A stretch of 32,000 nt of DNA from Candidatus Saccharimonadota bacterium (GTDB lineage: Bacteria; Patescibacteriota; Saccharimonadia; Saccharimonadales; UBA4665): positions 540,001 to 572,000 of the forward strand of contig CP023991.1 in NCBI GenBank assembly GCA_003516025.1, read 5' to 3'. Position numbers and translations under genes: made by a program. The notes beneath the pieces were generated by a model. That model was not told the origin of the DNA. It was given only the letters and a program-made list of their open reading frames with translations, and ran no database searches. This document shows, in pieces, positions 1 through 31,278 of the stretch (its first letter is position 1; every line of letters starts with the position of its first letter).

Positions 1-2520
1 GATGAGCACGCTCACAACATCCGTTCCGCGACCCGCATGATTGAAACTGGTGACGTCGCCGTTTGGGACGCCCTCGACACCGTCATTAAGGGTAAGTACG
101 TTCTGTTGAATCGTGCCCCATCCTTGCACCGCCTTTCAATCCAGGCCTTCCAGCCGGTACTTATCGAAGGCCGCGCCATCCAGCTGCACCCACTCGTCTG
201 TAAGGGCTTCAACGCCGACTTCGATGGTGACCAGATGGCCGTCCACCTTCCTTTGAGCGATGATGCTCAGGCAGAGGCCCGCGACATCATGGCTGCTAAC
301 AAGAATCTTCTGAAGCCAGCTGACGGTTCGCCAATTCTGCACGTTGAACAGGACATCGTCCTTGGTTGTTACTACCTCACGTACGACCGCCCTGACACCA
401 ATAAAGTACCTTTCGTATATAGCGACATCAATGAAGCTATTTTGGCACTCGATGCCGGTAGCTTGACGCTCCAGAACCGCATCCGCGTACCATTCCGTGG
501 CGAACGCCGCGAAACAACGCTTGGCCGCCTGCTGTTCAATGAAACCTTCCCGGATGATTTTCCATTCCAGGACGAGCCAATGACCAAGAAGCGTTTGCAG
601 AAAGTACTGGCTGACGCTTACCAGGCTTACGGCCAGGAAGTAACCGCTGAACTCGCCGACAAGTTGAAAGACCTCGGATTTGAATACGCCACAATTTCCG
701 GCCTCTCAATGGGTATGGGTGACTTCCATGCGGTTGAAGGTCTCGACGCCATGCTTGCTACCGGTGATACCCGCGCCAGTGCCATTTCAGAGCAGTTCGA
801 ACAAGGTTTTATTACCGAAGACGAACGATACCGCTTGACCGTCGATAACTGGGCCCGCGTTGAAACGCAGGTACAGGACGCTTTAGCCGAACAGATGAAG
901 GGCCGCGACAGCGCGACTGCTATCGCCATCAACTCTGGTGCCCGTGGTAACATCGGCCAGTTGAAGAACGCCGTTGGTATGCTTGGTGTCCAGTCCGACG
1001 CCTCCGGCCGCGCCATCGAACTTCCAGTCCGCTCCGGCTATGTCAAGGGTCTCAACCCGCTTGAATACTTTACGGGTACCCGTGGTACCCGTAAGGCGCT
1101 CATCGACATCGCCCTTAAAACCGCCGATGCCGGTTACCTGACGCGCCGCCTGGTAGACGTTTCTCAGGATGTCTTTACTATCGACGAAGAAGGCGACTCT
1201 AGCGATCCAGGCTTCGCGATGCTTCGGGCTGACGCTAAAGAGATTGGTGTTGGCTACGGCTCACGCCTGGTTGGCCGCTTTGCTGCCCAAGACGTCTCTA
1301 ACGGAAAAGTAGGTTACCTCAAAAAGGGTGAACGCTTTACTCCAGAAGTAGCTGCCAAGATCGACGCGGACGAGTCTCTCGACGCGGTCCGTATCATGAG
1401 CGCCCTCAGCTGTACCAGCGTCCGTGGAGTTCCACAGAAATCCTACGGTGTCGATCCGGCTACCGGTAACCTGGTTGCCAGCCACCACCCAATCGGTGTC
1501 ATCGCTGCCCAGTCTATCGGTGAGCCTGGTACGCAGTTGTCCCTCGACTCCAAGCACCGTTCCGGTGGTTTCGTCGCCGATGACACTGCGCAGGGTCTGT
1601 CCCGTATCGAGGAACTCTTCGAAGTCCGTACACCAAAGGGTCAGGCTTACCTGACTGACATTGCCGGTACGGCAAACACATGGGAAGAAGGCGACCACTA
1701 CGTGGTTCAGGTTACTGCCCATGATAAAGAAAACATCGAACTCGAAATTGGTGACCGCACGGTCCAGGTCAAGAGTGGTTCCGATGTTGCTATCGGTGAC
1801 GTCATTGCTTCACTCGAAGACGGCGCATCACCACTAATCGCACCAATGGCTGGCAAGGCCGAGGTCAGCGAAAAGACTATCATCATCACACCGGCCCGCA
1901 CCAGCGTGGTCCGCTACGAAATCCCTGGCTTCAAGCAATTGCAAGTCAAGGACGGTGATGAAGTCGAAGCCGGCCAGCGCTTGACTAACGGTTCCATTAA
2001 CCTACAGGACCTTCTGCGTCTCCAGGGTGTTGAGCCAACGCAGCGCTACATCATGAATGAAATCCTGCGTATCTTCGCAGGCCAAGGTCAGATCATTGCT
2101 GATAAGCACCTTGAAATCATCGTTCGCCAGATGTTCAGCCGCGTCCAGATCGAAGATGCTGGCGACAGCGAATTCGTGACCGGTGACGTCGTTTCCAAGC
2201 TGGCTGTAGTTGACGCTAATGAGCGCTTGGCTGCTGATAGCAAAGAACTCGTACAGTTCAACCAGCTGTTGCTTGGTATCACCAAGTCCAGCTTGAGTAC
2301 TGATTCGTTCCTGAGTGCCGCATCCTTCCAGGACACCACCCGCGTACTGATCGGTGCCGCGACCTCCGGCCGCGTCGACCGCCTGTACGGCTTGAAGGAA
2401 AACGTCATCTTGGGTCGCAAGATCCCAGTTGGCACTGGTTACGGCCAGGTCGCAGTCGCTGAAGATGCCATTGAAGACCAGCTCGCCGAGCCGCTTTCAA
2501 GCATCACTGACGCGCTGTAA
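1..2520 (+). CDS. rpoC: DNA-directed RNA polymerase subunit beta' (C-terminal ~840 aa; 5' end lies outside the window)
   Basis: Frame 1 is open from base 1. It contains the [12 protein letters not shown] catalytic motif and conserved beta' C-terminal blocks, ends in TAA at 2518-2520, and sits directly upstream of rpsL-rpsG-fusA-tuf. Confidence 0.95.
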
Positions 2521-2542
2521 GCCTCGCCAAGGCTGGGTAAAC

Positions 2543-2593
2543 ATAAGGGGTATTGACACAGGGTGTAATAGCGCTGTTGTCAATACCCCTTAT
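2543..2593. repeat. Perfect 16-bp inverted repeat ATAAGGGGTATTGACA / TGTCAATACCCCTTAT with a 19-nt spacer (IR-1), 23 nt after the rpoC stop
   Basis: The arms were read directly and are exact reverse complements. It could be the rpoC terminator hairpin (no clean U tract), and its 3' arm overlaps the putative rpsL -35. Confidence 0.7.
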
Positions 2594-2605
2594 ATCTGTT
2601 AAAAT
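2577..2605 (+). promoter_or_regulatory. Putative rpsL operon promoter: -35 TTGTCA, 17-nt spacer, extended -10 TGtTAAAAT
   Basis: Hexamers and spacing read from the sequence. It lies 114 nt upstream of the rpsL ATG. Confidence 0.45.
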
Positions 2606-2718
2606 CATTAGGTTACAAACTAAGTAGTCCGAGCCAGGGAAGTAGCCGTAAGCGTAGTTGGCACTCGCATACGCAGCCATGATCTTTCTTGCAGCAGCAG
2701 ATTACATAAGGAGCATAA

Positions 2719-3132
2719 ATGCCAACAATCAACCAATTGGTTCGCAAGCCCCGCACCAAGGTGATCGTCAAGACGAAATCACCTGCCATGCAGCGCGTTG
2801 TGAACAACCTCAAAACCACAAACTACGAAAAACACGCGCCGTTCAAGCGTGGTGTTTGCGTCAAGGTTACTACTAAAACACCAAAGAAGCCGAACTCAGC
2901 TCTTCGTAAGGTTGCCCGTGTGCGCCTGACCAACGGCTACGAAGTTTGGGCTTACATCGGTGGCGAAGGTCATAACTTGCAGGAGCATGCCGTTGTACTG
3001 GTACGCGGTGGCCGCGTAAAGGATCTTCCTGGTGTTCGTTATCATATTGTCCGCGGTAGCCTAGACCTTCAGGGTGTTAACAACCGCAAACAGGGCCGTT
3101 CCAAGTACGGTGCCAAGAAGGAGAGCAAGTAA
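2719..3132 (+). CDS. rpsL: 30S ribosomal protein S12
   Basis: 137 aa starting [12 protein letters not shown], with KKPNSALRK and [23 protein letters not shown] at 2708-2713. Confidence 0.97.
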
Positions 3133-3611
3133 TGCCACGTAAAAAGACTAAAGCATTAGTACGCGACGTCGCTCCAGATCGCCTGTATAACAGCGTTCCT
3201 GTAGCTCGTTTGATCAACCGCGTTATGTTGAACGGTAAAAAGCAGCTGGCTGAACGCCTCGTATACGACGGTATGCAGAAAGCCGCCGACCGTTTGAAAG
3301 TCGAGAACCCGCTTGAAGTTTTCGAAACTGCTTTCAAAAACATCCAACCGCATGTCGAGACCCGTTCCCGCCGTGTCGGTGGTGCCAATTACCAGATTCC
3401 GTTTGAAGTTCGTGGCCAGCGCCAGAACCACCTGACTACCATGTGGTTCGTCGCTGCCTGCCGCAGCCGCAAAGGCATTTCCATGGCTGACCGCATCGCC
3501 GCTGAACTGACCGACGCCTACAATGGCCAAGGCGCAGCAGTTAAGAAGCGTGAAGACACGCACAAGATGGCTGAAGCTAACCGCGCCTTTGCGCACTTTG
3601 CCCGAGGCTAG
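3132..3611 (+). CDS. rpsG: 30S ribosomal protein S7
   Basis: 159 aa with S7 family sequence. The start overlaps the rpsL stop (TAATG). Confidence 0.96.
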   Translation: MPRKKTKALVRDVAPDRLYNSVPVARLINRVMLNGKKQLAERLVYDGMQKAADRLKVENPLEVFETAFKNIQPHVETRSRRVGGANYQIPFEVRGQRQNHLTTMWFVAACRSRKGISMADRIAAELTDAYNGQGAAVKKREDTHKMAEANRAFAHFARG

Positions 3612-3615
3612 TTTT

Positions 3616-3864
3616 ATGGAGCTAGAACATCACCGCGAACGTGCGTCTATCGTATTTGATGCTATGAATACTGCTTCTGAGCAAAGTGCTCAAGCGACGA
3701 TTGCACATTCCGGTGATGTTTTGGGAATATTTCACCCAGATGTTTTAAAATCACGATGGGAATTGACAAAGGCGCTTGGTATGGGTGTACGAGAATTAAT
3801 CTCAATCGTGCCTCACGCGCCCGAGTTGTATAGAGAATGGCGAGTCCGACGTACTAATGAATAA
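3616..3864 (+). CDS. Hypothetical small protein (82 aa) inserted between rpsG and fusA
   Basis: ATG at 3616 lies 8 nt after GAGG (3604-3607). The track ORF 3523-3864 shares this frame, but its upstream part overlaps rpsG. No family recognised. Visibly more AT-rich than the flanking genes. Confidence 0.5.
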   Translation: MELEHHRERASIVFDAMNTASEQSAQATIAHSGDVLGIFHPDVLKSRWELTKALGMGVRELISIVPHAPELYREWRVRRTNE

Positions 3865-3897
3865 TATGGGGAATAAGGATATTTAAGAAGGAACTAC

Positions 3898-5985
3898 ATG
3901 GCAGATAAGAAAACAGCAATGGATAAGATTCGGAACCTTGGTATTATCGCGCATATCGATGCCGGTAAGACTACGACGACCGAAGGAATTCTGTATCGTA
4001 CCGGTTTGAACCACAAGATTGGTGCCGTACATGAAGGTGAAACAACGACCGACTGGATGGCCCAGGAACGTGAGCGCGGTATTACTATCGTAGCCGCTTC
4101 CGTTACCTGTTTCTGGAAGGGTCACCAGATCAACATTATCGATACCCCGGGACACATCGACTTTACCGTGGAAGTGGAGCGCTCACTGCGTGTCCTCGAC
4201 GGTGCCTGTGTGGTCTTCGACGGTAAGATGGGTGTTGAAAGCCAGTCTGAAACCGTTTGGCGCCAGGCTGACAAGTACGGCGTGCCACGCGTTTGTTTCA
4301 TCAACAAGATCAACCAAACCGGTGGCGACTTCTATAAATCTCTGGAAAGCATCCACAACCGCTTAAGCAAGCGCGCGTTCCCAATCCACCTGCCAATCGG
4401 TTTCGAGCAGGCCATTAACGGTATCGTTGACCTGGTTGAAATGAAAGCCTTCACTTACAAGGACTTCACCGATAAAGCTCTTGTTGAAGGCGAAATCCCA
4501 GCCGACATGATGGACCAGGTTAAAAAGTATCGCAGTCTCCTGATTGAAAACGCTGTTGCCGAAGACGAAGCTATGCTCGAAAAGTATTTCGAAGTTGGCG
4601 AAGACGGCCTGAGCACCGAAGAAGTCAAGCAGGCCATCCGTTCTGCTGTTTTAAGTGGTAACTTCTTCGCGGTTACCGGCGGCGATGGCCGCGGTGTGAT
4701 CGTCGAGAAAGTCCTCGATATGGTTGCCGACTACCTGCCAAGCCCGCTTGACCGTGGTTCTAACTGGGGTATACACCCTAAGACCGGTGACGAGATCGAG
4801 CGCAAGCCAAGCGAAGAAGAGCCATTCAGCGCGCTGGCATTTAAGATTACCACCGACCCATTTGTCGGTAAGCTGGCTTACTTCCGCGTGTACTCTGGTA
4901 CTATTACTGCCGGTTCATATGTTTACAACTCTACTAAGGGTGAAAAAGAGCGGGTTGGCCGTATCGTTCGTTTGCAGGCTGATAAGCGCGCAGATGTAAC
5001 TGAAGTCGGTGCCGGCGACATTGCTGCCATCGTCGGCCTTAAAGGTACGACAACCGGTGACACACTGTGTGACCAGGCTAACCCAATCGTTCTTGAAAGC
5101 ATTGACTTCCCAGAACCTCCAGTTTCGATTGCTATCGAACCAAAGACGAAAGCCGACCAGGAAAAAATGGGTATCGCCCTTGGCCGTTTGGCCGAAGAAG
5201 ACCCAACCTTCCGCGTACGCACCGATGAAGAGACCGGGCAAACTATCATCTCCGGTATGGGTGAGTTACACCTTGAGATCCTGGTAGACCGCATGAAGCG
5301 TGAGTTTAACGTGGAAGCTAACATCGGCCAGCCACAGGTTGCCTACCGCGAATCAATCCGCAAGAGCGGTATTGAAGCCCAGGGTAAGTTTGTCCGCCAG
5401 AGTGGTGGCCGTGGTCAGTATGGTGACGTCTGGCTGCGTGTTTCTCAGAACGAGCAGGGCGCCGGATTTGAATTCATCAACTCTATCAAGGGTGGTGTGG
5501 TTCCAACCGAGTACATCAAGCCGGTCGAAGAAGGTATCAAAGAGTCACTTGCTAACGGTATTATTGCTGGCTACCCGGTCGTAGACATTAAGGCCGAACT
5601 GTATGACGGTTCTTACCACGAAGTCGACTCCAACGAAATGGCCTTCAAGATCGCCGGTTCGATGGGTATCCAAGAAGCCGTTAAGAAAGCTAACCCTGTC
5701 TTACTTGAACCAGTGATGAAAGTAGTTGTTGTTACTCCTGAGCAGTTCATGGGTGACGTCATTGGCGACTTAAACAGTAAGCGTGGCCGTATTGAATCCA
5801 TGGAAGATCTTCCTGCCGGAATCAAAGAAATTACCGCCTACGTACCACTGGGTGAAATGTTCGGTTACACGACTAACCTGCGTTCCACAACCCAGGGCCG
5901 TGCCTCAAGTTCTATGGAACTCGACCACTACGCTGACGTACCGGGCCACGTTGCGGAAGCTATCATCGCCAAGAATTCGAAATAG
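3898..5985 (+). CDS. fusA: Elongation factor G
   Basis: 695 aa. G domain [15 protein letters not shown] and DTPGHIDF, with conserved EF-G domains II-V. Confidence 0.97.
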
Positions 5986-5998
5986 TCTCGCGGGACTA

Positions 5999-6043
5999 AT
6001 AGAGAGATGCTGACCTCTTTACAAAATGTTGGCATTTCTCTAT
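5999..6043. repeat. 12-bp inverted repeat ATAGAGAGATGC / GCATTTCTCTAT (one G-T pair) with a 21-nt spacer, enclosing the tuf promoter
   Basis: Read directly. It begins 14 nt after the fusA stop. Confidence 0.55.
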
Positions 6044-6046
6044 ACT
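6018..6046 (+). promoter_or_regulatory. Putative tuf promoter: -35 TTTACA, 17-nt spacer, -10 TATACT
   Basis: Near-consensus sigma-70 type hexamers with ideal spacing, 95 nt upstream of the tuf ATG. Confidence 0.5.
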
Positions 6047-6140
6047 ACCTCGGTAACTTGTGTGAGTTGTCTTTTCATAGTGACAATGGTCTCATGCAAA
6101 TAACGGACAAATGATTAATTAAACAAGGAGTCATATAAAT

Positions 6141-7325
6141 ATGGCAGATCAATTCGACCGAACCAAGCCTCACGTGAATGTCGGTACTATGGGTCACGTT
6201 GACCACGGTAAGACTTCACTGACCGCTGCTATTACTATGGTGCTCGCAAAGCGCCTCCCAACCGCAGTCAACAAGCCAGTTGACTACGCGATGATCGACA
6301 ACGCTCCAGAAGAGCGCGCTCGTGGTATTACTATCGCTACTTCCCACCAGGAATACGAAAGTGAAAAGCGCCACTATGCTCACGTCGACATGCCAGGCCA
6401 CGCCGACTACGTTAAGAACATGATTACCGGTGCTGCTCAGATTGACGGGGCTATCCTCGTTGTATCTGCTGCTGATGGTCCTATGCCTCAGACCCGTGAG
6501 CACGTTCTGCTCGCGAAGCAGGTTGGCGTACCAAGCATCCTGGTTTTCATGAACAAGATGGACCTCGCCGACGCTGACCTCGTTGAGCTCGTTGAAGAAG
6601 AAATCCGCGATCTGCTCGCTAAATATGACTTCGACCGCGACTGCCCAGTTATCAAGGGTTCAGCTACTAAAGCTATTGAAGGCGACAGCGCTAACGAAGA
6701 CGCTATCATGGAACTCGTTGCTGCTATGGATGCCTACATCCCAGAACCAGCTCGCGACCTTGACAAGCCATTCCTGATGCCTGTCGAAGACGTTTTCTCA
6801 ATCAAGGGTCGTGGTACTGTTGCTACGGGTCGTGTTGAAAGCGGTATCGTTAAACTAAACGACGAAATCGAAATCGTTGGTATCCGTACTACTCGTAAGA
6901 GTGTCGTTACTGGTATCGAAGCTTTCAAGAAGCAGCTTGATCAGGGTCAGGCCGGTGACAACGCCGGTGTTCTGCTCCGTGGGATTGAGCGTGATGACAT
7001 CGAGCGCGGCCAGGTCTTGGCTAAGCCAGGTTCTATCACTCCTCATACGGAGTTTGACGCTGAAGTCTATATCCTAACCAAGGAAGAAGGTGGTCGCCAC
7101 ACTCCTTTCTTCAAGGGATACAAGCCTCAGTTCTACTTCCGTACAACGGACGTAACTGGTGAAGTTGAACTTCCAGCTGACAAGGAAATGGTCATGCCTG
7201 GTGATACTATTACCTTTAAAGTTAAGTTGCTTGCTCCAATCGCCATGGACCAGGGTCTCCGCTTCGCTATCCGCGAAGGTGGCCGTACCGTTGGTGCTGG
7301 TGTTGTGACCAAGATCAACAAATAA
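6141..7325 (+). CDS. tuf: Elongation factor Tu
   Basis: 394 aa with [23 protein letters not shown] and NKMD motifs. SD AAGGAG at 6125-6130. Confidence 0.98.
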
Positions 7326-7341
7326 TCAGTCCTGCTGATTC

Positions 7342-7380
7342 AAAAAGAGCGCTCGGATCAATAATCCGGCGCTCTTTTTT
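7342..7380 (+). terminator. Rho-independent terminator after tuf
   Basis: Stem AGAGCGCTCGGA / TCCGGCGCTCT (one bulge), 7-nt loop, followed by TTTTTT. Confidence 0.85.
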
Positions 7381-7387
7381 GTTATCG

Positions 7388-7393
7388 TATAAT
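7388..7393 (+). promoter_or_regulatory. Putative -10 box TATAAT placed for a leaderless transcript of the J-domain gene
   Basis: The ATG at 7401 is 8 nt after the hexamer. There is no SD and no clear -35. Confidence 0.35.
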
Positions 7394-7400
7394 AAAATGA

Positions 7401-7811
7401 ATGGGTATGACAGAAAGTAGTAATTTCACGGACTATTATGAAGTTCTTGGCGTAAAGCCGACATCTGAAGTAGCCGAAATTCGCCGTGCCTATATAGCTT
7501 TGGCTAAGCAGCAGCATCCTGATGCCGGCGGTTCAATGGAAGCCATGCAACAGTTGAACATCGCGTACCGGACATTGACGAGCGATAGCGCGAAAACAGC
7601 TTATGATATGCTGCACAACTTCCATACCGGTAGCACTGCACCGGCTGACTACCGCTATAGTGATGGACGTGAGGTACATGGTGTCACCGATATGTCGGAT
7701 GATGAAATCGACGCTTTTCTTGATGACTTATTCACTGAGTATCGGAGCGGCCCGCCAAAGTCTAAGCAAAGTATTCGTGACTGGTTCAAGAACATCGTAA
7801 AAAAGATGTAA
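7401..7811 (+). CDS. J-domain (DnaJ N-terminal domain) protein, 136 aa, with an uncharacterised C-terminal half
   Basis: The N-terminus DYYEVLGV...IRRAYIALAKQQHPD carries the HPD tripeptide of J domains. There is no Gly/Phe or zinc-finger region, so it is not a full DnaJ. Confidence 0.8.
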   Translation: MGMTESSNFTDYYEVLGVKPTSEVAEIRRAYIALAKQQHPDAGGSMEAMQQLNIAYRTLTSDSAKTAYDMLHNFHTGSTAPADYRYSDGREVHGVTDMSDDEIDAFLDDLFTEYRSGPPKSKQSIRDWFKNIVKKM

Positions 7812-7841
7812 CCTCAAGTACTTTAGTTATCTCAAAACACC

Positions 7842-7850
7842 TGGTATAGT
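7842..7850 (+). promoter_or_regulatory. Putative extended -10 TGgTATAGT placed for a leaderless transcript of the 114-aa ORF
   Basis: The ATG at 7857 is 7 nt after the hexamer. No SD. Confidence 0.35.
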
Positions 7851-7856
7851 CTTTGA

Positions 7857-8201
7857 ATGAACACGCCTACTCCGGATTATCCGCAACAACTCTTTCCTCA
7901 TTCCATGCTTCCGGTCAATACTACGCTTATGGCTCAGTTGGCCGTAAAGTTCAGCCGGGTAACTGGCGGCGACTATCACGCCTATCTTATTAGTACCCCT
8001 GAGAACCGTGATCCTCGGTTTTTGATTAAACCAACTTGTCAGATCGATGCGATAGCCCGAGAATATAAAGAGGAACAAGCTGACCGAGGCGTAGAAGTTG
8101 TTATTAAGCCTTTGCCGGACGAGGCCGTGCAGGACATCTACGCCCAGTGTCTCGACGAATTAGACGTTATGATGCGAAGTCTGCGCCTAAACACGCAGTA
8201 G
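7857..8201 (+). CDS. Hypothetical protein (114 aa)
   Basis: ORF directly downstream of the J-domain gene. No family recognised. Coding status rests on ORF length and position only. Confidence 0.5.
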   Translation: MNTPTPDYPQQLFPHSMLPVNTTLMAQLAVKFSRVTGGDYHAYLISTPENRDPRFLIKPTCQIDAIAREYKEEQADRGVEVVIKPLPDEAVQDIYAQCLDELDVMMRSLRLNTQ

Positions 8202-8203
8202 AC

Positions 8204-8231
8204 TTTCCAATGAACGTTTAATATGTTAAAG
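8204..8231 (+). promoter_or_regulatory. Putative rpsJ promoter: -35 TTTCCA, 16-nt spacer, extended -10 TGtTAAAGT
   Basis: Read from the sequence. It would give a ~100-nt leader containing small hairpins (TGACT/AGTCA 8252-8264, TGTAGG/CCTACA 8269-8288). Confidence 0.3.
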
Positions 8232-8338
8232 TACATCTACTTACTAATTGTGCTGACTAAAAGTCATTTGTAGGCACTGAAACCTACAGAAGATGTTACA
8301 GCGCCATAACCGTCCAGACGGACAAAGGAACATTATTA

Positions 8339-23596: not shown

Positions 23597-23992
23597 ATGG
23601 CAGACAACTATTTCTACGCCTTAGGTCGCCGTAAAAGCGCCACAGCCCGCGTCCGCCTACAAAGCGGCAAGGGAACTATTATGGTCAATGAAAAGCCCGC
23701 GGAAGAATACTTTGCCGACAGCAAGTACCTTTTGAATAAGCTCTCTCAGCCGTTTACCGTATTGGGTCAGGAAAACAAGTACGCCATTTCCGCGCACGTT
23801 TCCGGTGGTGGCCATGACGGCCAAATCGAGGCTATCCGCCTTGGTATCGCCAAAGCACTGGCTACCATGAACGAAGACCTCAAGAGTACGCTTAAGCGCG
23901 CCGACCTGCTTGGCCGCGACTCACGCGAAAAAGAACGTAAGAAGTTCGGCTTGAAGGGTGCTCGTAAGCAGCGCCAGTTCACTAAGCGCTAG
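23597..23992 (+). CDS. rpsI: 30S ribosomal protein S9
   Basis: 131 aa with YFYALGRRKSATARV and C-terminal ARKQRQFTKR. Confidence 0.96.
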   Translation: MADNYFYALGRRKSATARVRLQSGKGTIMVNEKPAEEYFADSKYLLNKLSQPFTVLGQENKYAISAHVSGGGHDGQIEAIRLGIAKALATMNEDLKSTLKRADLLGRDSREKERKKFGLKGARKQRQFTKR

Positions 23993-24024
23993 AGACACAT
24001 TAAGTATCTTTTTGCTTACATAAG

Positions 24025-24055
24025 AAGTCCTCGACGCGAATCGGGGACTTTTTTG
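24025..24055 (+). terminator. Rho-independent terminator after rpsI
   Basis: 9-bp stem AGTCCTCGA / TCGGGGACT (one G-U), 6-nt loop, followed by TTTTT. Confidence 0.8.
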
Positions 24056-24072: not shown

Positions 24073-24114
24073 CCCTATTGACAGCCGGAGTATATACCGC
24101 TTATGTCAATAGGG
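24073..24114. repeat. Perfect 11-bp inverted repeat CCCTATTGACA / TGTCAATAGGG with a 20-nt spacer (IR-3)
   Basis: Read directly. It shares the TATTGACA...TGTCAATA core with IR-1 and lies between the rpsI terminator and the next promoter. Confidence 0.7.
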
Positions 24115-24115
24115 T

Positions 24116-24144
24116 TTGACAAATGGGCCTACCGGGAATACGAT
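24116..24144 (+). promoter_or_regulatory. Putative promoter: -35 TTGACA, 17-nt spacer, -10 TACGAT
   Basis: Consensus -35 with ideal spacing. The ATG at 24152 is 8 nt after the -10, the geometry expected for a leaderless transcript. Confidence 0.4.
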
Positions 24145-24151
24145 AAGTGTA

Positions 24152-24235
24152 ATGAAGTCTATGCAACAATTCGTATATTGGTTTTATTTTACCGGCAAAA
24201 GCTTGGCGGTTGCTCCCGTGCGTATTAGAAAATAG
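24152..24235 (+). CDS. Candidate leader peptide, 27 aa: MKSMQQFVYWFYFTGKSLAVAPVRIRK
   Basis: Hand-translated. It has six aromatic codons within seven (FVYWFYF, 24170-24190), runs through the antiterminator arm (24204-24211), and stops at TAG 24233-24235. No SD. Confidence 0.4.
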   Translation: MKSMQQFVYWFYFTGKSLAVAPVRIRK

Positions 24236-24257
24236 AGACAAAATAGAGACAAAATAG
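24229..24257 (+). repeat. Tandem 11-nt repeat AAAATAGAGAC, 2.6 copies
   Basis: Read directly: copies at 24229-24239 and 24240-24250, with a partial copy at 24251-24257. Confidence 0.9.
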
Positions 24258-24278
24258 TCTAAACTCAGTACTCATATA

Positions 24279-24306
24279 GAAACCGCCACAGCAGGCGGTT
24301 TTTTAT
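24279..24306 (+). terminator. Rho-independent terminator (attenuator terminator) just upstream of the SD of the 64-aa ORF
   Basis: Stem AACCGCC / GGCGGTT (extendable with A-U pairs), loop ACAGCA, followed by TTTTTTATT. Confidence 0.8.
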
Positions 24307-24322
24307 TATTAAGGAGATTATT

Positions 24323-24517
24323 GTGGCTGCGACATACGAACAACAAATTATAGATCAACAGTTACTGGCCGAGGCCCGCCAGCGTGTCGGCGCGTTTCTA
24401 CGTGACATCGACCAGCGCAACGGTATCTTTGTCGTGGAGCAGGTTCGAGACGTCGGAGCACGGCCGGCGGAAGTGGAGACACGGGCACTGGGCAGTCTGG
24501 CCGCGCTTAACGCCTAA
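24323..24517 (+). CDS. Hypothetical small protein (64 aa, GTG start)
   Basis: Strong SD AAGGAG (24311-24316) 6 nt before the GTG. The sequence looks helical. No family confidently recognised. Confidence 0.5.
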   Translation: MAATYEQQIIDQQLLAEARQRVGAFLRDIDQRNGIFVVEQVRDVGARPAEVETRALGSLAALNA

Positions 24518-24520
24518 CCC

Positions 24521-24529
24521 TGTTATAAT
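24521..24529 (+). promoter_or_regulatory. Putative extended -10 TGtTATAAT immediately upstream of trpS
   Basis: The ATG at 24540 is 11 nt after the hexamer. No SD. Confidence 0.35.
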
Positions 24530-28050: not shown

Positions 28051-28127
28051 GCCGCCTTAGCTCAGCTGGTTAGAGCATCAGTTTTGTAAACTGAGGGTCG
28101 TCGGTTCGAATCCGACAGGCGGCTCCA
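28051..28127 (+). tRNA. tRNA-Thr (anticodon TGT), CCA encoded
   Basis: Hand-folded cloverleaf: acceptor GCCGCCT/AGGCGGC, anticodon stem TCAGT/ACTGA with loop TTTGTAA, T arm GTCGG-TTCGAAT-CCGAC. Confidence 0.92.
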
Positions 28128-28138
28128 AGATAACATAT

Positions 28139-28223
28139 GCAGGGTTAGTGAAGCGGTCAAACACGGGTGACTGTAAATCATCTGGCTCAGCCTTCGGGGG
28201 TTCGAATCCCTCACCCTGCACCA
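28139..28223 (+). tRNA. tRNA-Tyr (anticodon GTA), class II long variable arm, CCA encoded
   Basis: Acceptor GCAGGGT/ACCCTGC, anticodon loop CTGTAAA, variable arm TGGCTCAGCCTTC, T loop TTCGAAT. Confidence 0.9.
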
Positions 28224-28298
<75 letters not shown>

Positions 28299-29218: not shown

Positions 29219-29238
29219 TTCGGCGATATACATACATT

Positions 29239-29268
29239 AAAAATCCCGGGCATATGCCCGGGATTTTT
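29239..29268. terminator. Strong bidirectional terminator (perfect palindrome AAAAATCCCGGGCATATGCCCGGGATTTTT)
   Basis: 8-bp GC-rich stem flanked by A5 and T5. It follows rpmG. Confidence 0.85.
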
Positions 29269-29299
29269 AATGGTTTTTAATATATGGAACGTTGATAAA

Positions 29300-29323
29300 C
29301 TGCCACCGCTCACGCGGTGGCAG
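29300..29323 (-). terminator. Hairpin terminator downstream of the GH15 gene
   Basis: 10-bp stem CTGCCACCGC/GCGGTGGCAG with a 4-nt loop. On the minus strand it is followed by TTTAT, a weak U tract. Confidence 0.55.
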
Positions 29324-29331
29324 TAATCCAG

Positions 29332-31278
29332 CTACTTATCGTAGTAATCCAGTAATGTATTAATGAGTTCAGCGTGGCTCCATACAAGCGGTGCTACGCC
29401 CAGCGGACTGCCGTCTTCCGGGTCGAATTGCTCGCTTAAGACGCCACTCGGCTGTTGGCGGGCCAGCGCCCAATCAATCAGCTCGCGGGCCTCATCGTTA
29501 CGGTGGGCGCTAATGTAATACTGGGCGAGCCACAAGGTACCGACAATCCAAGGGTTGCCGCCGAATTCAGGCTTGCTGAGGAAGTAGTCGTCACCGAAGT
29601 AACGTATAACGCCGCCGATCGGGCCCTTTTTATATATGTCCTGTTCAACCTTTTCAACGGTTTTCTTCATGCGCTCATCGTTGAGGGGCAGCTTGGCATA
29701 CATGAACGGGCCGTACATATTGGCAATGTCCATGCTGTTATCAAGCTGGAGCTCGTCGTTTTCAAGTAAGAAACTCTTGCGGAAATAACCATCAGGGTGC
29801 ACCAGCGTACCGAGATGGGCACGAATTGAATCTGCCGCGCGCTGCCAGGCAACGGCATCGCTGGGCTGTTCGACCACCTCTGCCAGTTTAATAGCAGCCT
29901 CCAGGCCGGCTATAACCGTACAAACTGTGTAAGTGAATGTCGCGAAGCGCTGTTCCCATAAATCGTAACTAGCATGTGGCAGGCCGGTTTCCTGATCAAT
30001 GAATGACGTCAGGAAGTTGGCACAGGGCACAATAAAGGTGTGGTACATGTTTTGGATGTAGACTTCGTCGCCGCTGGCTTCATACAGCTCATTGAGCATA
30101 AACAGCATACAGGCGGTCTCGTCTTCCTGAATCGCCAACTCTTTTGAGCGGTTATGCACTAATGGATGCCAGGTGCTGCCGACAGCGCGGTCAGGCTGGT
30201 ATTTATGCAGCATGTAGCCATCCGGATGCATAACATCACGGGCGAAGAAGAAGAACTGCCGGGCTTCATCAAAGTGGCCGGTACGGATAAGCGGCCATAA
30301 GGCGTAGGCCGCGTCGCGGGGCCAGCAATAGCAGTAGTAATCGCGGCCGAAGTTAAAGATACTCGAATCGCCACTGGCTAGGATTGAACCACGACTGTCG
30401 CAGTGTGCTTTAATAATCATCAGGCTGCGCTGGAGGGCCAGGCGTTCCGGCCCCGGCATGGCCGTGAGCTGTTTATTGTTTGGATTGAGCCATTCCTGCC
30501 ATGACAGACGCGTTTGGTGCAGCCTGTCATCAACGGCGCCCGGTTTTTGCAACTGGGCATGCATTTCGCCAGCATCATTTTGGCTGCTAGCCGCTACGAT
30601 CCAGTAGTAGGTCGCTTTGGAAGATCGGGCCGGTACCTGCATGACAAAGCGAATAACACTGTCAACGCCGCCGTGCTCGACCGGGTTATCAGACAGTTCA
30701 CCGTCTTCGGCGTCCATAAAGGTTCCAGCCTTGCCTTCGATGCCGTAATTGCCTATGGCATACTGGTCGAAAGATGTTCCGTCTTCCTGCTGGCCGCCAA
30801 TAGCCAAACAGTAGCGCCCCTTGTAATCCAAGATGTAATTAGCATCCGGGACATACAGGGCAGTGTCGCTGCGACCGGTCCGTGATATCTGGAACACCTG
30901 ATGCATAAACAGGCGGATTTCACGGTCCTGGTCACGATCGTTAGTTACAGTAATTTTTCGCAGAAAAATATTCTGCATATTATCAATGGTATCCTGCAAA
31001 TGGAGGCTGATACCTAAACCGTCATGCTTCATTTTCACGGTACTGATCAGCGCGTCCTGTTCGAATAGTACGGACGTCTCCCAGCTGTCATCATCGGTCC
31101 AGCTGAATGTCCCATCAACATACAGGCCGATTTTATGATGCAGGCTGCGTGAGGTCGTTAAGTTCTCTAAACCCACATATGGATAGTAAAAGTCGTGTAC
31201 TAATCCGTTTTCGTTGAGGCCAATAAACATCTGTCCATTACTGAGTACAACTGGTCGCCCCATCCTAAACCTTGACAC
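29332..31278 (-). CDS. Glycoside hydrolase family 15 protein (glucoamylase/glucodextranase-like)
   Basis: 648 aa with CWPRDAAY and LSEQFDPEDGSPLGVAPLVWSHAELI, motifs typical of the GH15 (alpha/alpha)6 catalytic domain. Confidence 0.85.
   Translation of the reverse strand: MSRFRMGRPVVLSNGQMFIGLNENGLVHDFYYPYVGLENLTTSRSLHHKIGLYVDGTFSWTDDDSWETSVLFEQDALISTVKMKHDGLGISLHLQDTIDNMQNIFLRKITVTNDRDQDREIRLFMHQVFQISRTGRSDTALYVPDANYILDYKGRYCLAIGGQQEDGTSFDQYAIGNYGIEGKAGTFMDAEDGELSDNPVEHGGVDSVIRFVMQVPARSSKATYYWIVAASSQNDAGEMHAQLQKPGAVDDRLHQTRLSWQEWLNPNNKQLTAMPGPERLALQRSLMIIKAHCDSRGSILASGDSSIFNFGRDYYCYCWPRDAAYALWPLIRTGHFDEARQFFFFARDVMHPDGYMLHKYQPDRAVGSTWHPLVHNRSKELAIQEDETACMLFMLNELYEASGDEVYIQNMYHTFIVPCANFLTSFIDQETGLPHASYDLWEQRFATFTYTVCTVIAGLEAAIKLAEVVEQPSDAVAWQRAADSIRAHLGTLVHPDGYFRKSFLLENDELQLDNSMDIANMYGPFMYAKLPLNDERMKKTVEKVEQDIYKKGPIGGVIRYFGDDYFLSKPEFGGNPWIVGTLWLAQYYISAHRNDEARELIDWALARQQPSGVLSEQFDPEDGSPLGVAPLVWSHAELINTLLDYYDK

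Follow-up and report, generated by a model that had tools for sequence, protein, structure and literature searches.

What is the function of a short open reading frame (ORF), crowded with aromatic codons and bounded by a promoter and an intrinsic terminator, that lies upstream of trpS, the gene for tryptophanyl-tRNA synthetase, in a member of the Saccharibacteria (TM7)? The question is raised by a 32,000-nucleotide (nt) stretch of contig CP023991.1 (Candidatus Saccharimonadota bacterium, positions 540,001 to 572,000; called the window here, in whose own numbering all coordinates without a locus name are given), for which a preliminary description had proposed leader-peptide attenuation. Saccharibacteria are ultrasmall bacteria with reduced genomes, mostly uncultured and thought to depend on a host for amino acids, and to our knowledge almost nothing is known about how they regulate their genes.

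We propose that the unit senses charged tRNA-Trp as a ribosome-mediated (leader-peptide) transcription attenuator, acts on a leaderless mRNA and gates transcription into trpS, and we put the probability of this reading at roughly 0.8. The attenuation logic suggested previously is supported by conservation of the unit in 19 copies and by the alternative helices that these copies can form. Judged by its sequence, the element has every feature of the classical attenuator family: a leader ORF with a Trp codon, an intrinsic terminator, an antiterminator helix (2:3) that excludes the terminator (3:4), a 5′ hairpin arm (1:2) within the footprint of a stalled ribosome, and functionally linked downstream genes. 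What the comparisons described below establish is the sequence architecture, the 19-fold conservation, the association with trpS and DAHP synthase genes and the mutual exclusion of the helices.

Conservation of the leader unit

Copies of the unit were found through a TrpS search of genome and metagenome collections and then in the contigs of the nearest TrpS relatives; they amount to 19 distinct copies in 18 Saccharibacteria lineages, two of them in one genome (L179; loci other than the window are given L numbers). Sixteen units served both as the training set of a covariance model and as the folding set, and 18 were scored for promoter and leader. The model scores its training members at 70–118 bits and recovers three untrained copies (L083 at 78.8 bits, the L179 copy at 3913–4044 at 69 bits and L089 at 43 bits); on 45 trpS loci from outside the Saccharibacteria it gave no real match. 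A weak match in L053 (Falkowbacteria) was rejected, as it comprises the 3′ end of 16S rRNA and a terminator, and another on the minus strand of the window (29234–29364; 22.6 bits, E = 0.055) is assumed to be terminator-driven. The closest relatives of the window TrpS are all Saccharibacteria. The leader unit is present in seven of the nine nearest relatives whose contigs were examined and was not present in more distant Saccharibacteria loci, including those of oral Nanosynbacter. The gene trpS lies downstream on the same strand for all 19 copies, and the gene on the upstream side differs, about half of the copies having rpsI there and the rest other genes.

Leader ORF and putative regulatory codon

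The promoter, TTGACA and TACGAT separated by 17 nt, is where it had been placed before, agrees with the consensus at 10 of 12 positions and is the top site of a 3-kb scan. An equivalent −35/−10 promoter with a spacing of 16–18 nt precedes the leader in 18/18 units scored, and the distance from the end of the −10 box to the leader start codon is 6–8 nt in all of these and exactly 7 nt in 15. Since the window −10 box also ends 7 nt from the leader ATG, there is no space for a Shine–Dalgarno (SD) sequence; correspondingly, no SD-like motif was found 5′ of the leader start in 17 of the 18 units, whose start codon is ATG except for GTG in two. The leader mRNA is therefore predicted to be leaderless, with a transcription start on the A of the ATG at 24152 or right beside it.

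Both the 27-codon ORF and its aromatic run are in place as first described, and comparison of the leaders separates the invariant from the dispensable part of that run. An in-frame Trp codon is present in 19/19 leaders, against a Trp frequency of 0.55 % in the proteins of the window; 12 of 18 leaders have it as codon 10, L014 has a tandem WW, and three further leaders contain a second Trp. Aromatic residues as a whole make up 19.6 % of the 18 leaders counted and 6.6 % of the window proteins. The Phe and Tyr codons, although frequent, are dispensable, since leaders reading AWWTG, FAWRTG or NWQTD lack them. Conservation thus extends to the ORF and its Trp codon, as anticipated, but not to the flanking aromatic codons, and the invariant codon, the putative regulatory one, is Trp. 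ATG and TGG are 27, 30, 33 or 45 nt apart, and the conserved block that follows lies 3–12 nt past TGG; both distances vary only by multiples of three, as expected if this stretch is translated.

Could the peptide itself be the product? Were the unit a stand-alone small-protein gene, with a functional aromatic peptide of 23–31 aa, an ordinary terminator and an incidental complementarity between ORF and terminator, then conservation of ORF, promoter and terminator as a complete transcription unit would be accounted for, as would the peptide-level conservation seen in the N-terminal half of the leaders (e.g. QNNQYWFT and FVYWFYFTGKSLAV). The C-terminal half, on the other hand, occurs in two frames with the GGCGGTT nucleotides fixed: GGCGG is read as L-A-V in eight units and as G-G in eight, so that this segment (region 2, below) is conserved as RNA and not as peptide. 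The peptide tails are variable, the conserved T-G/D residues coincide with the ACCGrC hairpin arm, complementarity to the terminator arm and loop is found in all units far above the level of shuffled sequences, and the unit always stands 5′ of trpS or a DAHP synthase gene on the same strand. We consider a small-protein gene highly improbable.

Alternative RNA structures

Downstream of the Trp codon the RNA contains segments that can pair in two incompatible ways (Table 1). Region 1, with the consensus ACCGrCAC (r being G or A), begins 3–12 nt past the Trp codon across units; in the window it lies 12 nt past this codon, within the footprint of a ribosome stalled there. It pairs with GUGGCGGU of region 2, the core in the window being ACCG (24191–24194) with CGGT (24207–24210). 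Region 2 may pair instead with region 3, through TGGCGGTTGCT (24204–24214) and AGAAACCGCCA (24278–24288), which are 91 % complementary, and region 3 is at the same time the 5′ part of the terminator, whose arms AAACCGCC-N6-GGCGGTTT occupy 24280–24287 and 24294–24301 with T6 at 24299–24304. The GGCGGTT direct repeats (24205–24211 and 24294–24300) and the terminator with its T-run had been recognized before and are confirmed. Region 1 repeats region 3 (ACCGCCAC) with slight imperfections, and region 2 is a copy of region 4; this arrangement is the classical attenuator design. The preliminary description had overlooked the 1:2 hairpin, and had been troubled by a leader stop codon lying too far beyond the antiterminator arm for the textbook geometry of occlusion. 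The hairpin, conserved and situated just past the Trp codon, removes this reservation: as 1:2 plus 3:4 is the default once the ribosome has left, the position of the stop codon matters little.

The complementarity that makes the terminator and antiterminator mutually exclusive is well above chance. In the window the 2:3 duplex has a free energy of −18.5 kcal/mol, against −8.6 ± 2.3 kcal/mol for shuffled sequences, of which 2/500 are as good; across units the duplexes range from −12.5 to −25 kcal/mol (mean z −3.9 relative to shuffles), with at most 5/500 shuffles as good in 13/16 units. When the free full-length RNA is folded, the minimum free energy (MFE) structure combines 1:2 with the terminator in 15/16 units. 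When the footprint of a ribosome at the Trp codon is masked on a transcript that ends before the 3′ terminator arm, 2:3 is in the MFE structure of all 16; with the ribosome masked at the stop codon, no 2:3 pairing is seen in 15/16.

The helices are also supported by alignments of the units (16 for the terminator and for 1:2), in which we used as a control the pairing recounted after the partner columns had been slid out of register. The terminator is 95.8 % paired (≤61 % when slid), with four compensatory pairs and a score reached by 0/500 shuffles, and the antiterminator is 81–82 % paired (≤56 % when slid), with a covariation score of 0.135–0.153 against 0.078–0.097 (0/500). For the anti-antiterminator 1:2 the corresponding values are 83.8 % and ≤47 %, with 41/500 shuffles for covariation. 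Moreover, the first base of the terminator loop pairs with the base preceding GGCGG in 17/19 units (U-A in 14, and G-C, A-U and U-G once each), and the second pairs in the antiterminator in 13/19, by five pair types; the antiterminator thus reaches into the terminator loop, where the terminator itself sets no constraint and where the sequence is variable across units.

This layout also bears on a TnaC-type nascent-peptide sensor, in which free tryptophan or some other ligand, and not uncharged tRNA, would make the ribosome stall through a conserved W-F-x-(D/G) peptide. In E. coli TnaC the critical Trp is followed by Phe, and some peptide conservation around the Trp is found in the Saccharibacteria leaders as well. 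The residues around it nevertheless vary (AWW, AWR, NWQ), and the stop codon follows the Trp at anything between 12 and 21 residues, a spacing that has to be constant in TnaC. For trpS or DAHP synthase it would be senseless to be induced by excess Trp, and the 1:2/2:3/3:4 arrangement with region 1 placed so close behind the Trp codon is what sensing of starvation requires. We rejected the TnaC-like explanation on account of the variable spacing and the regulatory logic, and regard it as most improbable.

Proposed mechanism

From these features we infer the start site, the translation of the leader and its response to Trp supply. Transcription would start on the A of the leader ATG or on a neighbouring nucleotide, and a 70S ribosome would load on the 5′ AUG without an SD sequence. 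With plentiful Trp-tRNA the ribosome would pass the Trp codon at 24179–24181 and run to the stop codon; region 1 could then re-pair with region 2 behind it, leaving region 3 for region 4, so that the terminator would form and transcription end at about 24304. With scarce Trp-tRNA the ribosome would stall with UGG in its A site and cover region 1; region 2, remaining free, would capture region 3 before region 4 is made, no terminator would form and RNA polymerase would read into the 64-aa ORF and trpS. Region 1 would also be masked by a stall at the Phe and Tyr codons that occupy positions +1 to +3 behind the Trp, and through these flanking codons the leader may sense all three aromatic amino acids.

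Several observations weigh against this interpretation. Pairs changed on both sides are not above the level of shuffles (184/500), the covariation being thin because the helix cores GGCGG/CCGCC are invariant; the expectation that the two helices would covary is borne out in that both are kept and the terminator has compensatory pairs, but not by the count of double-sided changes. The RNAalifold consensus recovers the terminator only and neither 1:2 nor 2:3, and so gives these two no independent support. In every unit 2:3 is thermodynamically stronger than 1:2, and before the 3′ arm is made it is the MFE structure of most units even without a ribosome; termination under Trp-replete conditions must consequently rest on co-transcriptional kinetics, and equilibrium folding is not decisive for the switch. 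In the folding suggested beforehand to mimic a stalled ribosome, the truncated RNA behaves as predicted in 16/16 units, but the full-length MFE structure with region 1 masked keeps the terminator in 9/16, including the window. Most leaders contain only one Trp codon, whereas the majority of characterized attenuators have more regulatory codons; the window trpS has a −10 box of its own and no SD.

The outcome proposed for Trp-replete cells, a terminated transcript of about 150 nt, leads to a further possibility, namely that this small RNA is the main product and acts in trans, with regulation in cis secondary or absent. A strong promoter and an efficient-looking terminator should make such an RNA abundant, and the trp attenuator RNA rnTrpL of Sinorhizobium, which is reported to act in trans, provides a precedent (PMC6614838). 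No target complementarity was found, although no search aimed at it was made. The conserved parts are, however, exactly those that a cis switch needs, and an in-frame Trp codon with frame-preserving insertions and deletions would have no role in a small RNA. We therefore think a primary role in trans very unlikely, although a small-RNA role and a cis attenuator are compatible and not mutually exclusive.

Table 1. Features of the leader unit and its surroundings in the window
Feature	Coordinates	Strand	Basis
rpsI intrinsic terminator, AGTCCTCGA / TCGGGGACT and T-run	24026–24054	+	Read from sequence
42-nt palindrome, CCCTATTGACA-N20-TGTCAATAGGG, centre TATATA	24073–24114	.	11-nt perfect arms
Leader promoter, TTGACA (24116–24121), 17-nt spacer, TACGAT (24139–24144)	24116–24144	+	Promoter scan
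Leader ORF, 27 codons, MKSMQQFVYWFYFTGKSLAVAPVRIRK; ATG 24152, stop TAG 24233–24235	24152–24235	+	ORF list and reading
Aromatic codon run F-V-Y-W-F-Y-F; Trp codon 24179–24181	24170–24190	+	Sequence and comparison of 19 leaders
Region 1, ACCGGCAA, 5′ arm of 1:2 hairpin (anti-antiterminator)	24191–24198	+	MFE and centroid folds
Region 2, AGCTTGGCGGTTGCTC, partner of region 1 or region 3	24200–24215	+	Folds, duplex energies
Spacer, A-rich and G-poor, leader stop to region 3	24229–24277	+	Composition count
Region 3, terminator 5′ arm (24278–24287) and loop; common partner of regions 2 and 4	24277–24293	+	
Intrinsic terminator hairpin, 10 bp, G+C-rich stem, 6-nt loop, then T6	24278–24304	+	Terminator scan, folds
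SD AAGGAG (24311–24316) and 64-aa ORF, GTG 24323 to TAA 24517	24311–24517	+	ORF list; gene call in L161, L162
Extended −10-like box of trpS, TGTTATAAT, 10 nt before ATG	24521–24529	+	Read from sequence
trpS, tryptophanyl-tRNA synthetase, 349 aa, PF00579	24540–25589	+	

Genes under the proposed attenuator

The AAGGAG, the 64-aa ORF and trpS follow the terminator in the order and at the positions reported previously; the gap between T-run and SD is 6 nt, not 5 as had been stated. The junction of terminator and SD (TTTTTTAAT..TAAGGAG) is kept across units, and the first gene behind it is not. In the window this first gene under the attenuator is the 64-aa ORF, which matched no known family. A small first ORF (55–137 aa) with a strong SD is found likewise in L001, L002, L005, L081, L084, L089, L094, L164, L165, L171 and L172; the notion that these ORFs constitute one conserved family was rejected, as none of them matches Pfam and BLAST shows no similarity among them. 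Conservation of the junction before mutually dissimilar ORFs points to a hypervariable gene slot under the attenuator. Behind the second L179 copy (L170/L179:5015) the first gene encodes a 278-aa protein without a known family and is followed by a gene for a luciferase-like monooxygenase, and in L092 there is no gene between terminator and trpS.

In four copies the first gene past the terminator encodes DAHP synthase, in one of them only probably. The enzyme is of class II (PF01474) in L163 (214–1446) and of class I (PF00793) in L173 (846–1808) and behind L179:3913; the product in L083 (1034–1999) is class I DAHP synthase-like, its Pfam match falling just below the cut-off. Non-homologous DAHP synthase isozymes appear to have been paired with one and the same control cassette. 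Of the two copies in L179, one stands directly before the DAHP synthase gene and the other before an operon ending in trpS. In the L179 contig aromatic-pathway genes are inserted between rpsI and trpS (2334–8272, equivalent to the whole contig of L170), in the order prephenate dehydratase (PF00800), a 69-aa ORF, Trp leader, class I DAHP synthase, second Trp leader, 278-aa protein, luciferase-like monooxygenase and a 104-aa protein. Placed before trpS and DAHP synthase genes, the element marks genes of tryptophan and aromatic amino acid metabolism, which fits its regulatory codon.

Two side observations concern L179. Its aromatic-pathway genes represent a biosynthetic capacity unexpected for a Saccharibacterium. 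Further, the stretch 5′ of its prephenate dehydratase gene (2880–2975) contains four CCTAGG/CTAGG arms, CGCCTAGG, CTCTAGGCGG, TGCCTAGGG and CCTAGGCA, the last followed by a T-run; no aromatic-rich leader ORF was seen there. Since the arms could pair into alternative hairpins, a second switch, of another kind, may be present.

How far trpS itself depends on the attenuator is a question already put by the caveat, made at the outset, that the gene has its own −10 box, and this caveat stands. A TATAAT-like box lies 5–12 nt before the trpS ATG in every Saccharibacteria locus read (L001–L022, L081–L094), whether the leader is present or not, implying a near-leaderless trpS transcript across the phylum. 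As the box occurs in all of these loci, the attenuator is not the only promoter-linked control of trpS and probably supplements a basal promoter with a conditional input. At several loci an SD is squeezed between the TATAAT-like box and the trpS ATG; in that position it would be usable only on read-through transcripts.

Comparison with known systems

The E. coli trpL attenuator (Trp_leader, RF00513; Yanofsky 1981, as cited in PMC4046766) shares with the Saccharibacteria element a short leader ORF with Trp codons, four segments forming 1:2, 2:3 and 3:4, a terminator with a U-run and, as proposed here, masking of region 1 by the stalled ribosome. Whereas trpL is SD-led and has two tandem Trp codons, the Saccharibacteria leader is predicted to be leaderless and usually has one; its stop codon lies beyond region 2; its targets are an aminoacyl-tRNA synthetase and DAHP synthase, and not a trp biosynthetic operon; and no Rfam match to Trp_leader, in sequence or structure, was obtained. 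The pheST leader of E. coli (pheM) is similarly a leader-peptide attenuator of an aromatic aminoacyl-tRNA synthetase, but its regulatory codons are Phe only, and the best score of our element against Phe_leader (RF01859) was 19 bits (E = 1.9), below the 55-bit threshold, so that it is no member of this family.

Among actinobacteria, the trpRS1 attenuator of S. coelicolor has reportedly been demonstrated by experiment, by Vecchione and Sello in J Bacteriol in 2010. Classical attenuators were predicted 5′ of trpS (trpS2) in Streptomyces (PMC1262725), and these too would be Trp-codon leader-peptide attenuators before a tryptophanyl-tRNA synthetase gene. Their hosts are Actinobacteria, in contrast to a host from the candidate phyla radiation (CPR), and the sequences are unrelated; moreover, the Streptomyces target is an auxiliary second trpS, whereas a single trpS was seen at each Saccharibacteria locus, a comparison that extends to the loci only. 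In Corynebacterium glutamicum the leader peptide of aroF (DAHP synthase) contains Phe-Tyr-Phe, and ilvB has a leader that is translated in the absence of a ribosome-binding site (both PMC4046766). Both organisms place aromatic codons before DAHP synthase and have leader peptides whose transcripts lack an SD, but the invariant codon here is Trp and not Phe or Tyr, the conserved downstream gene is trpS, and there is no sequence relationship. Leaderless polycysteine short ORFs of mycobacteria act as Cys-responsive attenuators that control translation by unmasking a downstream ribosome-binding site (bioRxiv 10.1101/834739). They resemble what is predicted for the present element, a leaderless 5′ short ORF with stalling at the codons of one amino acid as the sensor, and differ in that the intrinsic terminator and antiterminator of the Saccharibacteria element indicate control of transcription.

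In Firmicutes, finally, trpS is controlled by T-boxes (PMC1262725), which likewise induce it by antitermination when charged tRNA-Trp is low; the T-box (RF00230) senses uncharged tRNA by RNA–RNA contacts and has no leader ORF. This parallel, together with the 42-nt palindrome by the promoter, which could bind a regulator, and UAG/GAG-rich repeats in the spacer, might favour a protein- or tRNA-mediated switch (a T-box, a TRAP-like or another RNA-binding protein) in place of a ribosome-mediated one. The preliminary description had likewise left room for a T-box or another known leader, and had proposed an Rfam search; at gathering thresholds and at E ≤ 10 this assigned no family, neither T-box nor riboswitch nor known leader, and returned weak terminator-driven matches only, and a tRNA/tmRNA scan found nothing in the leader region. 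With about 150 nt the unit is too short for a T-box, and it is without a specifier or T-box sequence. The spacer repeats are not conserved beyond the closest relatives and are absent from most units, for which reason the TRAP-like reading of the repeat was rejected. Such a switch would leave an invariant in-frame Trp codon on an ORF predicted to be leaderless unexplained, and we give it almost no weight.

Significance

The mechanism is textbook, with precedents in Streptomyces trpS, Corynebacterium aroF and the leaderless actinobacterial leaders; the value of the finding lies in where the element occurs and what it regulates. A literature search yielded no report that links Saccharibacteria with attenuators or Patescibacteria with leaderless leaders. 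The points of interest are the organism, the predicted leaderless design with a single Trp codon, the link to DAHP synthase and the variable slot for small ORFs. If the attenuator reading is true, Saccharibacteria monitor the charging of tRNA-Trp and use coupled transcription–translation on leaderless mRNAs, and genes for DAHP synthase and prephenate dehydratase are retained in some lineages, the former lying directly behind the control element. In practical terms, the covariance model gives annotators a handle on an element missed by gene callers, and fast-changing small ORFs are flagged as occupants of a slot under attenuator control.

Taken together, the observations may also be given a wider and rather unlikely interpretation, namely that promoter, leaderless Trp leader, attenuator and SD make up a portable Trp-starvation cassette, with DAHP synthase and trpS as the small ‘aromatic’ regulon that it defines. 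Unrelated ORFs of 55–137 aa would have been placed behind it repeatedly, as hypervariable, starvation-induced products perhaps used in dealing with an amino-acid-supplying host, and the cassette would be the first leader-peptide attenuation described in the CPR. Were this so, reduced-genome bacteria would rely on coupled transcription–translation on leaderless mRNAs for nutrient sensing.

Other features of the locus

The window contains a Saccharibacteria ribosomal-protein cluster (rpoA, rplQ, rplM, rpsI), followed by trpS, a pseudouridine synthase gene and a PF13177 gene (DNA polymerase III delta′-like). The rpsI gene ends at 23992, and the leader unit sits between its terminator and trpS. 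The position of this terminator isolates the unit from the ribosomal-protein operon; its stem is also visible in the alignment of a weak, non-significant Rfam match, and it was not reported by the consensus terminator scan.

The spacer between leader stop and region 3 is variable in sequence across the 16 units, with a length of 21–44 nt and a total composition of A193 C91 T90 G53. In the window it is extended by an 11-nt tandem repeat (AAAATAGAGAC × 2.6, 24229–24257) that runs across the leader stop codon. L002 (at about 2657–2685) has a comparable 12-nt duplication (AGAGACACGATA × 2) and L165 one copy, and the related sequence TAGAGACACATTA overlaps the rpsI stop codon (23990–24002).

The 42-nt palindrome ends 2 nt from the leader −35 box, on its 5′ side, and could be an operator for a dimeric regulator, providing a second layer of control. 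A similar TTGACA...TGTCAA is found at the same place in L171 (at about 1990–2025). A cluster of tRNA genes (Thr-TGT, Tyr-GTA, Thr-GGT) lies at 28051–28298, 2.5 kb 3′ of trpS.

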